A DNA stretch of 12,558 nucleotides from a virus, in the IMG/VR virus record IMGVR_UViG_3300044639_001767; one strand, written 5' to 3'. A model generated the notes under the pieces. The model saw nothing but the letters and a program-made list of their open reading frames with translations. It did no database searches and had not been told where the DNA came from. Positions 1-6,280 of the stretch are shown here, in pieces; within the stretch, counting starts at the first letter, position 1, and each line of letters begins with the position of its first letter. The position numbers were made by a program, and so were the translations under genes.

Positions 1-561
1 TGCTGTGGGATTCAGCAGCTTGCGTGCCAACACCACTGGTGGCAGCAATACTGCTGTGGGTGTCAGCAGCTTGCAGTGTAACACCATTGGCACCAGCAAT
101 ACTGCTGTGGGATTCAGCAGCTTGCGTTACAACACCACAGGCACCAACAATACTGCTGTGGGAGTCAACAGCTTGCGTACCAACACCATTGGCACCAGCA
201 ATACTGCTGTGGGACTCAACAGCTTGCGTGCCAACACCACTGGTGTCAACAATACTGCTGTGGGAGTCAACAGCTTGTGTACCAACACCATTGGCATCGC
301 CAACACCGCTGTAGGCGCATACAGCTTGCGTTACAACACCACTGGCGGCAGCAATACTGCTGTGGGTATCAGCAGCTTGTGTGCCAACACCATTGGCACC
401 AACAATACTGCTGTGGGATTCAGCAGCTTGTGTGCCAACACCACTGGCGGCAGCAATACTGCTGTGGGACTCAACAGCTCGCGTTACAACACCACTGGCG
501 GCAGCAATACTGCTGTGGGTGTCAGCAGTTTGCGTTACAACACCACTGGCAATTTCAACGT
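1..561. repeat. Eleven tandem copies of a 51-bp unit (tgctgtggg..tcagcagcttgcgt.ccaacaccactgg...caatac), about 85-95 % identical to each other. The array continues upstream of the window and degenerates after about 561.
   Basis: Read directly by eye: units begin at 1, 52, 103, 154, 205, 256, 307, 358, 409, 460 and 511. Each encodes one 17-aa fibre repeat. Confidence 0.9.
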
Positions 562-2185
562 TGCTGTGGGCACTTATGCGCTGAATACCATGAATTCAGG
601 CACCACCAGCACTACTGCCAACGTGGCAGTGGGTGGATCAGTTCTTCGTGCGGCTACTACTGCCATAGGCAACACTGCCATGGGCGCCAGAGCAGCAGCA
701 GCCACCACATCTGGTAAGTATAATACTGTTTTTGGAAGTAGAGCATTATTGGCCAACACTACAGGTGGATATAACACTGCTATTGGTGGTCTTGTATTGT
801 GTTTGTCTAATACTGCGACTAACAGTACCACTGGCAACACAGCCGTTGGTCATATGAGCCTTGCCCAATCTACCTTGGGCATTTGCAATACAGCTATGGG
901 AAACAGAGCGGGAAATTCCAATACAACTGGTAATGCCAACGTTGCCATTGGTAACAGTGCGCTTCTTACCAACACAACAGGTGGCCACAATGTGGCTATT
1001 GGTGTTGCAGCACTGTGTATTGCAAATGTGGGTAACACAAGCGCAACGGCTAATGTGGCTGTGGGTTTCAGTAGTCTAGGCGCCCTTACTACAGGCTTAT
1101 CAAATGTCGCTGTAGGATCCAGGAGCGGTGCATCTATTACCACAGCTAGCAACAATATCACATTGGGCAATCTAACATTGTGCTCCAATACAACCGGAGA
1201 CAGCAACGTAGCCATCGGACACAATGCACTATCATCCTCCAATACCGGTAACACATCATCCACAGCCAATGTGGCTGTGGGAGCCAACTCTTTGCAGGCA
1301 GTAACGAATGGTAATTCCAATGTGGCTGTGGGATCTAGAGCAGCCTTGGCTATTACTACTGGGTGTGGCAACATCGTATTGGGTAATACATCCTTGATCA
1401 GCAATACCACCGGATCATTCAATATTGCGGTTGGAACCAATGTGTTGTGTAGCATGAATGCCGCCACCACAAGTGCATCTGCTAACATTGCAGTGGGCGC
1501 ATACAGCCAAAGTTCATCAACCACAGGCAGTGGCAATACCAGTTTGGGTAATTTAACTCTTATTGCTGCAACCACTGGTTCCTGCAACACTGCTGTTGGT
1601 GCATGTGCAGGATGTAATATCACCACTGGCACCAATAATACCTTCCTGGGATACAGGGCGGTAGCAGCCACAATAACAGACAGCAACACAATCACTTTGG
1701 GCAACAGTGCTATCACCACTATCAGAGCACAAGTTACCAGCATTACTGCACTATCCGATTGTAGAGACAAAACCAACATTGTGGGCATTCCAGTGGGCTT
1801 GAACTTCATAAGAGAAGTAAGACCAGTCAAGTTCACCTGGAACATGAGAGATCGTGCTCAGGTGGGCGTGGATGATGCAGGATTTATCGCACAGGAATTG
1901 GATGCACTCAGCACTTGCTGGGGTGTGGAATGGTTGAATCTTGTGAAAAAAGACAATCCCAACAGATTTGAAGCCACTCCCAACAGACTGTTTCCAGTAG
2001 TGATCCAAGCTATCAAAGATTTGGCCGATAGGTTGGATCAACAAAGTCAGCATCCATTGAAGGTTGCTAAATTCACAACTGAAACAAGAGATCAATTGGA
2101 AGTGCAAGACGGTATGCTGATCTACAATGTCAATGAATCCAAATTCCAGGGATATGCCAATGGCGCATGGATAAACCTAGGTTGA
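2..2185 (+). CDS. Tail fiber/tail spike-like protein, 5'-partial (ORF open to window edge). It has about 30 degenerate 17-aa repeats (N-T/V-A-V-G-x-x-S-L-x-x-N-T-T-G-x-x) and a C-terminal S74-type intramolecular chaperone domain.
   Basis: Long ORF with no start inside the window (the track start at 5 is GTG in frame with upstream sequence). The periodic 17-aa repeat is typical of beta-helical fibre or adhesin repeats. The C-terminal block ALSDCRDKTNIVGIPVGL...FIAQELDAL matches the S-D-x-R-x-K-x-N-I auto-cleavage motif of endosialidase and T5 pb1-type chaperone domains. A 11-bp-stem hairpin follows the stop. Confidence 0.75.
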   Translation, partial: AVGFSSLRANTTGGSNTAVGVSSLQCNTIGTSNTAVGFSSLRYNTTGTNNTAVGVNSLRTNTIGTSNTAVGLNSLRANTTGVNNTAVGVNSLCTNTIGIANTAVGAYSLRYNTTGGSNTAVGISSLCANTIGTNNTAVGFSSLCANTTGGSNTAVGLNSSRYNTTGGSNTAVGVSSLRYNTTGNFNVAVGTYALNTMNSGTTSTTANVAVGGSVLRAATTAIGNTAMGARAAAATTSGKYNTVFGSRALLANTTGGYNTAIGGLVLCLSNTATNSTTGNTAVGHMSLAQSTLGICNTAMGNRAGNSNTTGNANVAIGNSALLTNTTGGHNVAIGVAALCIANVGNTSATANVAVGFSSLGALTTGLSNVAVGSRSGASITTASNNITLGNLTLCSNTTGDSNVAIGHNALSSSNTGNTSSTANVAVGANSLQAVTNGNSNVAVGSRAALAITTGCGNIVLGNTSLISNTTGSFNIAVGTNVLCSMNAATTSASANIAVGAYSQSSSTTGSGNTSLGNLTLIAATTGSCNTAVGACAGCNITTGTNNTFLGYRAVAATITDSNTITLGNSAITTIRAQVTSITALSDCRDKTNIVGIPVGLNFIREVRPVKFTWNMRDRAQVGVDDAGFIAQELDALSTCWGVEWLNLVKKDNPNRFEATPNRLFPVVIQAIKDLADRLDQQSQHPLKVAKFTTETRDQLEVQDGMLIYNVNESKFQGYANGAWINLG
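1754..2182 (+). other. C-terminal intramolecular chaperone / peptidase S74-like auto-processing domain of the fibre protein; candidate cleavage serine encoded at 1754-1756.
   Basis: The motif L-S-D-C-R-D-K-T-N-I, followed by about 140 aa rich in conserved aromatics and acidics (FTWNMRDRAQVGVDDAGFIAQELDAL), resembles the self-cleaving C-terminal domains of phage tail spikes and L-shaped tail fibres. This is judged from memory. Confidence 0.5.
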
Positions 2186-3556: not shown

Positions 3557-3600
3557 TGGGATTTTTTGCCAAAATAACTGATTAAACCCCTAATTGATTG

Positions 3601-3628
3601 TTGACATTTTTGCGCCTGGTGCTATTAT
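3601..3628 (+). promoter_or_regulatory. Strong sigma70-like promoter: -35 TTGACA (3601-3606), 16-nt spacer, extended -10 TGcTATTAT (3620-3628). The predicted transcription start is about 3635-3636, at the A of the PTH2 start codon, giving a leaderless mRNA.
   Basis: Consensus hexamers read directly. The ATG at 3636 lies 8 nt after the -10 hexamer and there is no Shine-Dalgarno motif between them. Confidence 0.5.
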
Positions 3629-3635
3629 CAGGTTT

Positions 3636-4061
3636 ATGAAAAAGAATTCACCCGTTTACGCATATGTTTTGATGAGAAATGATCTGGCCAGCCTGGGCGC
3701 AGGCAAGGCAGCAGCACATGCTCATCATGCAGGAACAAGAATGACCTACCATGTACGCAAGCATGGCACCAGGGCACAAAAAGATGTGCTCAACACCTGG
3801 GAACAGGAATGTGAGGGTGTGGGCACCACCATCGTGTTGAGTTGCGATGAAGAAACCATGAAGTGGTGTGTGGCAGAAATTGAAAAACTGCGAGATCAGG
3901 GTTGCAGTGCAGGTGTGTGGCGTGACCCCACCTATCCCAGCACCACAGAGCGTGGGTTCTGTTTGATGGCAGTGGATGTGTGTGCCTGGGTTCTGGGCAG
4001 CAAGGACGATCTTTCACCTATCCTCAGCGACCTGCCTCTCATGAACAATTGTGCATGGTAA
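3636..4061 (+). CDS. pth2: Peptidyl-tRNA hydrolase of the PTH2 (archaeal/eukaryotic) family, 141 aa.
   Basis: VYAYVLMRNDLASLGAGKAAAHAHHA aligns by eye with PTH2 [25 protein letters not shown]. The downstream pattern (VLNTWEQ..G..IVL..DEE..., DPTYP) also fits PTH2 topology. The ATG at 3636 is preferred over the TTG at 3594, which overlaps the promoter. Confidence 0.65.
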   Translation: MKKNSPVYAYVLMRNDLASLGAGKAAAHAHHAGTRMTYHVRKHGTRAQKDVLNTWEQECEGVGTTIVLSCDEETMKWCVAEIEKLRDQGCSAGVWRDPTYPSTTERGFCLMAVDVCAWVLGSKDDLSPILSDLPLMNNCAW

Positions 4062-4503: not shown

Positions 4504-4944
4504 CTACAAAGTATATTCAAAATTTTGCGTGTGTGAATTTATTTGCAGCAACTGAGCACCATTTTTGATGTGAAATTTGGTTGCCATGTCCGTGAGAGGA
4601 CTGAGAGTCACCAATCTTTGGATGTGACCCAAATTAGTCTTCACATGATTTCTCGCATGAACAATCATGGCCTGACCTCCACCTTTTTCAATAGCCCAGA
4701 TGGTGTATAACACTGCCACTGTGGCATCAGTGCCCTGATAGCTGAACAATTGTTGCTCTTGAGTAGGCACTGTATCTGTGAATGCCACACATACCACACT
4801 CTGCGGCTCATCCTGCTCGTTTAACAGCACCCAAACACTGGCATTATTGCCCACTCGCTGATGTGGGGGAATATGAGGACGAACAGGATCTTCTTTGATC
4901 AATTCCATCAAGGGATCGTGGATATCCTCTAGAGTTACCAGCAT
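4504..4944 (-). CDS. Hypothetical protein of 146 aa, possibly a GNAT-fold acetyltransferase (weak). The start is moved to the ATG at 4944.
   Basis: AGGAG lies 8 nt upstream of the ATG at 4942-4944 (MLVTLEDI...). AIEKGGGQAMI...KFHIKNGAQ loosely resembles GNAT motif A and the C-terminal region. This is not confirmed. Confidence 0.55.
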   Translation of the reverse strand: MLVTLEDIHDPLMELIKEDPVRPHIPPHQRVGNNASVWVLLNEQDEPQSVVCVAFTDTVPTQEQQLFSYQGTDATVAVLYTIWAIEKGGGQAMIVHARNHVKTNLGHIQRLVTLSPLTDMATKFHIKNGAQLLQINSHTQNFEYTL

Positions 4945-5518: not shown

Positions 5519-5546
5519 TGGTAGGCCCCCTCCGGTTCGAACGGAG
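5519..5546 (-). other. tRNA 3'-half-like element on the minus strand. It has a T-arm (ctccg-TTCGAAC-cggag), a 7-nt acceptor 3' strand ggggcct, discriminator a, and an encoded CCA. No matching 5' half was found.
   Basis: Read directly from the reverse complement of 5519-5546. A second T-arm-like hairpin (tgagg-TTCAACT-cctca) lies at 5572-5588. Attempts to fold a complete cloverleaf (type I or type II) by hand failed. Confidence 0.4.
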
Positions 5547-5791
5547 ATATGCTCGCTTATAGTTTGGGGATTGAGGAGTTGAACCTCATTGTGTAACCTA
5601 CATCCCCCGAGGCGAGTTCATTCACCAATTATGATAGAGGCCCTTACCAACTGTTCATATATTATGTGCTAGATATGGGTTTGTCAACACATAATATATA
5701 AATAAAGATGGTAATCCTGTTGCTACGAACAACAGGAAACCCGGCTTGGAGCCCCAGGCTGTCCCACACATATATTTACTTGGAGATTCCT

Positions 5792-6280
5792 ATGTTTATC
5801 AATAACAAATATACCTCTTGGTATATCTCATTGGTTAGTAATGCTCAAACTAGAAATTTAGATAGATCTGTCTATACTGAAAAACATCATATTATTCCCA
5901 AGAGCCTAGGGGGCAATGATGCAAAAGATAATCTTGTTAGACTTACTGGCAAAGAACATTTTGTAGCACATTTATTACTTACCAAAATGACCTTTGGGGT
6001 CAATGCAAGAAAAATGGCCTTTGCCTTGTGGCGGATGACACAAGATAATAAGAAACGAGACAGGTTCCGAATGTCTTCTCGGCAATATCAAAATATCAAA
6101 ACTGGCATGAGCGAGGCAATGAAGGTACATAACAAAGGCAAGAAACTTTCTCCAGAGCATATTCAGAAAGTAAAAGAGGGAATAGCAGCAAAAGGCGGGG
6201 CACATAATAAAGGCAAATCTATGAGCGAGGATCAGAAACACACGCGCCTTTTGGCTAGGGGTGATTGGGAATGTTCATAA
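5792..6280 (+). CDS. HNH homing endonuclease with NUMOD3 DNA-binding repeats, 162 aa as currently open.
   Basis: GGAG lies 6 nt upstream of the ATG at 5792. The HNH motif is EKHHIIPKSLGGNDAKDNLVRLTGKEHFVAH. NUMOD3-like repeats are present (NKGKKLSPEHIQKVKEG, NKGKSMSEDQKH). Confidence 0.8.
   Translation: MFINNKYTSWYISLVSNAQTRNLDRSVYTEKHHIIPKSLGGNDAKDNLVRLTGKEHFVAHLLLTKMTFGVNARKMAFALWRMTQDNKKRDRFRMSSRQYQNIKTGMSEAMKVHNKGKKLSPEHIQKVKEGIAAKGGAHNKGKSMSEDQKHTRLLARGDWECS

Follow-up and report, generated by a model that had tools for sequence, protein, structure and literature searches.

The 12,558-nt viral sequence IMGVR_UViG_3300044639_001767 of IMG/VR (the window, by which we mean this whole stretch) carries on its minus strand an interrupted but complete tRNA gene, part of which had been noticed before as an isolated tRNA 3′-half-like element. 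A preliminary description, made from the sequence alone, had pointed out a T-arm, an acceptor strand, a discriminator A and CCA at 5546-5519, all of which are indeed present, and a second T-arm-like hairpin next to them. We propose that this element is the 3′ exon, plus part of an insert, of an intact tRNA(CAU) gene with its own putative promoter, and that the insert, 48 nt long, is a mini-intron shaped like the upper half of a tRNA. It would belong to a family of short, mobile, tRNA-mimicking mini-introns that contain no open reading frame (ORF) and are so far confined to contigs of uncultured large phages. We put the probability of this explanation as a whole at about 0.72.

Default ARAGORN found neither a tRNA nor a transfer-messenger RNA (tmRNA) in the window, and an Rfam search of the whole window with E values up to 10 gave no tRNA match. 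Both negatives are uninformative, because the insert breaks the tRNA models. ARAGORN in intron mode, a check proposed in the preliminary description, resolved the element as a tRNA of 125 nt (c[5519,5643]), labelled Pro(CGG), in which 48 nt are an intron. The call exceeds chance, since the same mode gave 4 matches in 300 dinucleotide-shuffled windows (~0.013 per window). The 5′ acceptor strand, D-arm and anticodon arm, earlier reported as impossible to match, are all present (5643-5612, with the 3′ strand of the anticodon stem at 5556-5552), and what had been taken for a 3′ half is a gene complete but for an insert in its anticodon loop, as judged from intron-mode ARAGORN and from covariation (below). 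The acceptor strands GGGCCTC and GGGGCCT pair at 7 of 7 positions, two of them as G-U. After in silico deletion of 5608-5561, default ARAGORN called a 77-nt tRNA(CAT), and only with this segment removed did the sequence conform to a cloverleaf tRNA of the RF00005 type. The folding energy of the single sequence was not significant (z = -1.55). The best promoter-like site of the region, a match to the sigma-70 consensus, is placed so that its -10 hexamer ends 15 nt 5′ of the first nucleotide of the tRNA (Table 1).

The exact site of the insertion was given by comparison with other contigs (designated here by L numbers). Inserts related to that of the window, which we call family A, are found in seven genes with five unrelated tRNA bodies (the window; L004; L012 and L028, which share one body; L016, identical in L026 and L029; L027; and L034). 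In every one of these genes the anticodon loop contains CUC, then the insert, then AUAA; the first nucleotide of the insert (G, C, G, C, U, C) and its last nucleotide (U, G, A, A, A, A) are variable. Alignment of the interrupted gene of L034 with the uninterrupted tRNA(CAU) of L013, which has a closely similar body, produced a 51-nt gap exactly at CTC^ATAA, in a placement that admits no shift, and C34 and A35 are therefore the nucleotides that the insertion separates. Joining them would give a mature loop CUCAUAA and the anticodon CAU, and the predicted spliced junction of the window gene is CUCGCCUC joined to AUAAGCGAG (34/35). The window tRNA spliced in silico matched phage tRNA(CAU) genes across the junction at 84-92% identity (query 1-43 or 8-43), and the best match of the spliced L012-type tRNA was E. 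coli tRNA-Ile, with the loop CTCATAA. Splicing at 33/34, an idea that came from two sequences and that would give UAU or GAU anticodons, was rejected once more homologs were compared: different genes would then have U, G or A at the wobble position, and C34 is invariant.

Among tRNAs with a CAU anticodon, the window gene is probably a tRNA-Ile2, the type in which C34 is converted to lysidine and which IleRS charges, and it would then be a substrate of the TilS-like enzyme. The pairs by which TilS rejects tRNA-Met are 4:69 and 5:68 in E. coli and G3:C70 and C4:G69 in B. cenocepacia (PMC11947777). The acceptor stem of the window tRNA has G3:C70, C4:G69 and C5:G68, pairs at which the other family-A bodies differ, and a gene for a TilS catalytic domain lies 3.5 kb away; tRNA-Ile2 is favoured over elongator tRNA-Met because of these identity pairs and this neighbour. 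The TilS-like protein matches TIGR02432 (lysidine_TilS_N) with 122.5 bits (cutoff 93.6) and Pfam ATP_bind_3 with E = 1.7e-30, and it is the probable modifier of C34 in the window tRNA. Against this assignment, C4:G69 and C5:G68 are missing from the L012-type body, and the phage enzyme is without the C-terminal domains with which TilS reads the acceptor stem; elongator tRNA-Met is thus a possible alternative. In cells, it is the C-terminal domains of TilS that tell tRNA-Ile2 from tRNA-Met, and one possibility is that an insert beside C34 could mark the correct tRNA(CAU) for a TilS stripped of these discriminating domains. The window gene is unlikely to encode an initiator tRNA: its first pair is G1-U72, and a GGG/CCC run is missing from its anticodon stem.

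The insert itself is predicted to fold like the upper part of a tRNA: an acceptor-like stem of 7 positions stacks on a T-arm of 5 bp whose loop reads UUCAACU, a short hairpin with GG in its loop occupies the place of the D-arm, there is no anticodon arm, and a single-stranded tail of 4 nt forms the 3′ end. With the 5′ end flush and the tail as long as N73-N76, the ends of the insert are thus arranged like those of a mature tRNA. When the locus alone was searched against Rfam, the tRNA model spanned 5607-5565 end to end (16.4 bits for a gathering threshold of 29, E = 0.5), matching the acceptor and the T-arm with the D and anticodon arms deleted, and the winner within the clan was tRNA, not tmRNA. 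The T-like arm of the insert is the second hairpin of the preliminary description; it is real, although 25 nt upstream and not 26, and it may act as a processing signal, as had been suggested, because it is part of the tRNA-mimicking insert.

We analysed covariation in an alignment of six related sequences with a structure that we specified, using slid and shuffled alignments as controls. The specified structure was paired in 95.9% of cells, compared with 72.7% in shuffles, and 23 of the 33 pairs showed compensatory changes, as high a value being reached in 0 of 500 shuffles; slid controls gave 33-59%. Compensatory changes on both sides were seen in 4 of the 7 pairs of the outer stem and in 2 of the 5 pairs of the T-like stem, and all four helices of the host tRNA covary. 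RNAalifold independently returned the host cloverleaf and the three helices of the insert. The recovery of a full cloverleaf agrees with the earlier suspicion that the element is related to tRNA.

The design of the insert recurs well beyond its own sequence family. The comparative set comprises 11 inserts, which fall into three sequence families and interrupt eight or more tRNA bodies. A direct structural scan with shuffled controls was used in place of a mixed covariance model of all families, because MAFFT left the outer stems unaligned across them. Family B occupies Leu-like tRNA(UAA) genes in L003/L004, L012, L025 and L033, and family C a type II tRNA-Leu(CAA) gene in L025. All 11 inserts share one layout, in which the outer stem is flush with the 5′ boundary (N1), the 3′ boundary is N72 + 4 nt, the loop of the middle hairpin contains GG and the T-like loop reads UUCRAYY (the parse of the L033 insert was corrected by homology). 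In all 11, joining the flanks gives back a loop of 7 nt in which U33 and A37 are present and the anticodon suits the body. Families B and C are inserted at 35/36 or 34/35, and the L033 insert sits one loop position earlier with its internal layout unchanged. This constancy despite a shifted site suggests that the boundaries are measured from the insert itself and not from the host tRNA. As to the family-B bodies, one is type II with a long variable arm and the others have a short variable loop, which is unusual for bacterial-type tRNA-Leu.

Insert and exon histories can be compared in several pairs, in which the insert is better conserved than its host tRNA and has been exchanged between different tRNA bodies. 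L016 and L028 are 100% identical in the insert and 66% in the exons; the corresponding values are 94% and 66% for L012 and L016, and 80% and 52% for L016 and L027. The body shared by L012 and L028 carries two variants of the insert, one of which is identical to the insert of a different body, and homologous tRNAs occur with and without an insert (L034 versus L013). Exact-pattern scans for the exons and insert of the window in viral and metagenome contigs gave no matches, and scans of 185,579 species genomes with the family-A and family-B cores, as well as of deposited phage genomes, found no insert and only generic tRNA halves.

The window gene lies beside a free-standing HNH gene whose product matches phrog_655, 'homing endonuclease', with E = 1.7e-42 and scores 21.9 bits with Pfam HNH, for which the cutoff is 21.4. 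Together with the score of TilS above the TIGR02432 cutoff, this match gives substance to the link with a homing endonuclease and TilS that had been noted earlier. The HNH cassette (~5798-6533) is an indel that is absent from the relative L004. Identity between the two contigs is 99.2-99.5% as far as the cassette and then drops, from 99.4% to 83%, across the tRNA. Endonuclease genes also accompany other interrupted tRNAs: phrog_655 HNH genes in L016/L026 and L003 (Table 1), a GIY-YIG/NUMOD3 gene in L025, and weaker endonuclease-related ORFs beside the copies in L003, L034 and L027. A diverged second copy of the HNH 5′ region (71% identity to window 5737-5962) was seen at L003 2696-2923 and L004 5841-6068. 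Since this copy, elsewhere in the same phage, is near the family-B interrupted tRNA-Leu, paralogous phrog_655 endonucleases of one genome stand beside two different interrupted tRNAs. In collaborative homing, an intron shields its own allele from a neighbouring free-standing endonuclease, which in turn mobilises the intron (PMC6083498). The same layout is present here, with an insert that lacks an endonuclease adjoining a free-standing endonuclease gene, both of them polymorphic. By analogy, tRNA(CAU) alleles that lack the insert would be targets of the HNH enzyme, an allele that carries it would be spared, and the insert could spread as DNA in this way.

The tRNA could decode only after loss of the insert from the transcript, which would leave the 7-nt loop CUCAUAA. 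We propose that excision is measured by structure, because the splice sites have no sequence conservation and yet are fixed relative to the mimic of the tRNA top half; splicing by some protein-dependent route of this type is probable. Bacterial RNase P recognises the stack of acceptor and T-stem and the elbow of T-loop and D-loop, and cleaves minihelix substrates, and Rnl-type ligases seal 3′-OH/5′-phosphate ends and repair breaks in anticodon loops. A cut of the RNase P type at the flush 5′ boundary could leave C34 with a 3′-OH, a second endonucleolytic cut after the 4-nt tail could leave A35 with a 5′-phosphate, and an Rnl-type RNA ligase could then seal the anticodon loop. This specific assignment to RNase P and a ligase is tentative and less likely than not. 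RNA ligases are common in jumbo phages (PMC7824862). A simpler model of RNase P plus RNase Z was tried and discarded: RNase Z would leave three tail nucleotides on the 3′ exon and no 7-nt loop would result, and the introns of Lak megaphages (below) do not fit it.

The closest known counterparts are the 'enigmatic' introns in tRNA genes of Lak megaphages, described by Devoto et al. 2019 (PMC6784885), who stated that phage tRNA introns were previously unreported and remarked of one intron that it 'itself may encode a tRNA'. Like the present inserts, they are short ORF-less insertions in anticodon loops of huge-phage tRNA genes, are not group I introns, and vary in presence among related genomes, with strong conservation wherever they occur. 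By our parsing by eye, every intron of their Table S6 has an acceptor-like stem and a T-arm of the UUCGAAU type near the 3′ splice site, and they are therefore of the same class as the insert described here. The Lak introns differ in being 79-141 nt long, in starting with a UACA hairpin and a ~27-nt A-rich linker before the module, in ending 1-3 nt after it, and in their apparent site at 36/37, whereas the window insert is 48 nt long, starts flush, has a 4-nt tail and sits at 34/35 (34/35 or 35/36 for the present families). No sequence similarity between the Lak introns and the window insert was visible by eye. We found no paper explaining these introns in the full-text literature, a coverage from which subscription journals were mostly absent.

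By the prevailing view, the tRNA introns of bacteria and their viruses are all self-splicing introns of group I. Group I introns resemble the insert in interrupting the anticodon loop, in being mobile as DNA and in their ties to homing endonucleases, but they are ribozymes of ~200 nt or more with a conserved P3-P9 core, whereas the insert has 48 nt and is tRNA-like. Archaeal and eukaryal introns with a bulge-helix-bulge (BHB) motif, processed by EndA/TSEN and RtcB or Trl1, are likewise short, located in the anticodon loop and detected by the intron mode of ARAGORN, and they depend on proteins, as the insert would. They differ in having two 3-nt bulges and a 4-bp helix at site 37/38, while the insert lacks a BHB, is at 34/35, comes from a bacterial virus, and has splice sites that follow its own structure and not the mature tRNA domain. 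The S-PM2 psbA intron with F-CphI (PMC6083498) and T4 mobE with I-TevIII (PMC2790892) offer the same arrangement of an endonuclease-less intron beside a free-standing endonuclease, with cassette and intron both polymorphic and a drop of identity at the endonuclease boundary, although there it is a group I intron in a protein gene and here a tRNA mimic in a tRNA gene. It is conceivable, if doubtful at present, that the inserts form a third kind of tRNA intron beside group I and bulge-helix-bulge. In such 'tRNA-in-tRNA' mini-introns, a ruler read from the intron's own tRNA mimic would set the splice sites, the 5′ end being flush and the overhang matching N73-N76 in length. Nucleases of the cell or phage that process tRNA ends would excise them, an anticodon-loop RNA ligase would reseal the tRNA, and collaborative homing with free-standing HNH or GIY-YIG endonucleases would spread them among tRNA genes with a common anticodon loop.

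RNase P minihelix substrates and the tRNA-like domain of tmRNA also have an acceptor-like stem on a T-arm with a canonical T-loop and no anticodon arm, and tmRNA 3′ ends contain the family-A motif GAGGAUGUAGG followed by a T-arm. The insert module differs from both in being nested in the anticodon loop of another tRNA and in lacking a CCA end, and its resemblance to tmRNA is probably coincidental. We observed GAGGATGTAGG plus a T-arm at tmRNA 3′ ends, in the tRNA-like domain, in L015, L019-L022 and L024 (compare window 5606-5572); most matches of viral contigs to the GAGGATGTAGG-type pattern are such tmRNA ends, presumably prophage attachment sites. Separately, on the minus strand of L023 (IMGVR_UViG_3300031992_000385), at ~4560-4830, a free-standing mini-tRNA-like module of 42 nt occurs three times in tandem, one copy every ~116 nt. 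Every copy consists of an acceptor-like stem of 7 bp, in which the copies differ by compensatory changes, ~11 nt with GGAACA, a T-arm with the loop UUCGAAG or UUCGAAU, and a CCA-like 3′ end; none is within a tRNA. These modules may be independent relatives of the insert design.

Several observations weigh against our explanation. Much of the covariation of the cloverleaf is divergence between tRNA bodies and may predate the insertion; the sole comparison within one body, that of the window and L004 exons, shows three changes, all in loops, which is weak evidence for selection after insertion. The outer stem of families B and C has 4 bp plus mismatches and would be a weak substrate for RNase P. 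RNase Z normally cuts after N73 and not after a 4-nt tail that is not CCA, and no RNA ligase gene is found on the short contigs that carry the interrupted tRNA. In the Lak introns the module is preceded by ~27 nt and followed by 1-3 nt, so a single RNase P/RNase Z rule cannot explain all cases. No endonuclease gene was seen near the copies in L012, L028 and L033, and the adjacency seen elsewhere could merely reflect that tRNA clusters are hot spots for endonucleases.

The most serious competitor holds that the insert is never removed: either the tRNA gene is a dead target, inactivated by a mobile tRNA-like element, or the mini-tRNA is itself the product, freed by tRNA-processing enzymes to serve as a decoy, a regulator or a handle, while the host tRNA does no more than carry it. 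In its favour, a splicing machinery was not identified, conservation is higher in the insert than in the exons, the tandem free-standing acceptor and T-arm modules of L023 mean that such RNAs may have a role of their own, and Devoto et al. mention an intron possibly encoding a tRNA itself. A dead or carrier tRNA, however, does not account for flanks that in all three families rebuild a loop of the canonical 7 nt, U33 and a purine 37 included, or for a rebuilt anticodon that suits the body (CAU in family A, UAA or CAA in Leu-like bodies). Exon changes between the window and L004 spare the stems, the promoter-like site and the encoded CCA are retained, and several distinct tRNA(CAU) bodies keep intact cloverleaves. 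We therefore consider retention of the insert unlikely. Catalysis by the RNA itself, by a group I intron or a small ribozyme, has in its favour that the known anticodon-loop tRNA introns of bacteria and phages are group I, but 48 nt is far under group I size, no Rfam intron or ribozyme family matched at E up to 10 either window-wide or with the locus alone, and the conserved elements are tRNA-like helices without a catalytic core; it appears very improbable.

We give still less credence to two further readings. The intron-mode output of ARAGORN, taken literally, describes a tRNA-Pro(CGG) with an archaeal/eukaryal-style intron near 37/38 that a splicing endonuclease would cut at a bulge-helix-bulge, and G37 would suit tRNA-Pro. 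Clear homologs of the window gene are, however, labelled Arg(CCG) or Lys(CUU), and the supposed anticodon falls in the covarying outer stem of the insert, so the splice placement of the program is arbitrary; the alignment of L034 and L013 fixes the junction at 34/35, and no bulge-helix-bulge motif that was complete or consistent across homologs was found in 10 sequences with both strand geometries and all 8 splice registers. The other reading, offered in the preliminary description, is a tRNA remnant left by insertion of the endonuclease, an attachment (att) half-site derived from a tRNA, or a chance hairpin. It could draw on the adjacent homing-endonuclease gene and on the negative results of default ARAGORN and window-scale Rfam. 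Yet the full cloverleaf is present and covaries, the 5′ exon has been found, and the locus is conserved in many contigs; the HNH cassette lies ~155 nt upstream of the tRNA start, outside both gene and promoter, so the endonuclease did not destroy the gene; and nothing suggests an attachment site; no integrase and no repeat of the 3′ half were found in the window.

Table 1. Features of the interrupted tRNA(CAU) gene, its insert and associated genes. Positions refer to the window unless another contig is named.
Feature	Position	Strand	Basis or remark
Complete interrupted tRNA(CAU) gene, CCA encoded in genome	5519..5643	-	125 nt; ARAGORN intron mode, cloverleaf covariation
5′ exon	5609..5643	-	sequence; CUC invariant across family-A genes
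Acceptor stem, 5′ strand GGGCCTC	5643-5637	-	sequence
D-arm TCAT-AATTGGTGA-ATGA	5634-5618	-	sequence
Anticodon stem, 5′ strand CTCGC	5616-5612	-	pairs with GCGAG, 55 nt enclosed
Loop nucleotides C32 U33 C34	5611-5609	-	sequence
Insert, putative mini-intron mimicking a tRNA top half, 48 nt	5561..5608	-	boundaries from L034/L013 alignment and layout table
Insert, outer stem 5′ strand GGGGGAU	5608-5602	-	sequence
Insert, middle GUAGGUUACACAA, 13 nt with GUA-GGU-UAC	5601-5589	-	sequence
Insert, T-like arm UGAGG-UUCAACU-CCUCA, G-C closing pair, T-loop-like loop	5588-5572	-	sequence
Insert, outer stem 3′ strand AUCCCCA	5571-5565	-	sequence
Insert, tail AACU, 4 nt	5564-5561	-	sequence
3′ exon	5519..5560	-	sequence; AUAA invariant across family-A genes
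Loop nucleotides A35 U36 A37 A38	5560-5557	-	sequence
Anticodon stem, 3′ strand GCGAG	5556-5552	-	sequence
Variable loop	5551-5547	-	sequence
T-arm CTCCG-TTCGAAC-CGGAG	5546-5530	-	sequence
Acceptor stem, 3′ strand GGGGCCT	5529-5523	-	sequence
Discriminator A73	5522	-	sequence
Encoded CCA	5521-5519	-	sequence
Putative sigma-70-like promoter TTGACA-17 nt-TAATAT	5659..5687	-	consensus scan, 10/12 matches; consensus match only
Free-standing HNH homing-endonuclease gene, divergent from tRNA	5792..6280	+	Pfam HNH, phrog_655
TilS-like lysidine synthetase, N-terminal PP-loop catalytic domain only, 200 aa	9131..9733	-	TIGR02432, Pfam ATP_bind_3
Family B/C interrupted tRNA genes	L003 1133-1272; L004 4278-4417; L012 15667-15794		
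Family B/C interrupted tRNA genes	L025 3135-3262 and 2880-3027; L033 17811-17936		
phrog_655 HNH genes beside other interrupted tRNAs	L016 9502-10227 (4 nt from tRNA); L003 2120-2866		

The window is a fragment of a huge-phage-like virus, which is carried by samples such as JGI 3300042517 and 3300044546, SRR13827125 and ERZ27272047. Its proteins comprise an S74-chaperone tail-fibre-like, a PTH2-like, an HNH, a major-vault-protein (MVP)-like, a TilS-like and a saccharopine/homospermidine-synthase-like protein. In the phage collection, the MVP-like protein matches only uncultured phages of 462-735 kb (LR756500, LR756501 and LR756503), and the same TilS protein is found on many contigs of up to 27 kb. 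The MVP-like gene (6601-9171, minus strand) encodes MVP shoulder and vault repeat domains, has over 6,000 homologs in metagenomes, where many lie on contigs of 100-570 kb and some on contigs of 375-570 kb, and marks a recombination hot spot immediately downstream of which tRNA and homing-endonuclease genes recur; the regions around the MVP homologs of LR756500 and LR756501 contain no tRNA. A 93-nt direct repeat, 95% identical (10504-10596 and 12446-12538), flanks the saccharopine/homospermidine-synthase-like gene (10969-12372), which suggests a duplication or a cassette boundary. The tail-fibre-like ORF (5-2185, plus strand) consists of dozens of short NTAVG-type repeats and a C-terminal Peptidase_S74 intramolecular chaperone domain, and the repeats also produce spurious long ORFs, both in the remaining frames and on the complementary strand. 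The PTH2-like assignment (3594-4061, plus strand) is weak, with 29.2 bits in Pfam (cutoff 23) but NCBIfam scores that fall far short of the cutoffs (20.2 versus 126 and 18.8 versus 82).

The introns of Lak megaphages have been reported once and have stood unexplained since 2019; the locus described here provides a minimal example of 48 nt and a comparative set of 11 inserts, which yields testable rules concerning the site, the flush 5′ boundary, the 4-nt tail, the mimicry of the tRNA elbow and the adjacency of endonucleases. Default ARAGORN and Rfam miss these genes and the intron mode assigns the wrong isotype, and the tRNA repertoires of huge phages, and the codon-usage inferences drawn from them, are therefore incomplete. 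If our explanation is true, the bacterial world would possess a new protein-dependent route of splicing, assembled from ordinary enzymes of tRNA processing and RNA repair, and selfish elements would have a new way of colonising tRNA genes.

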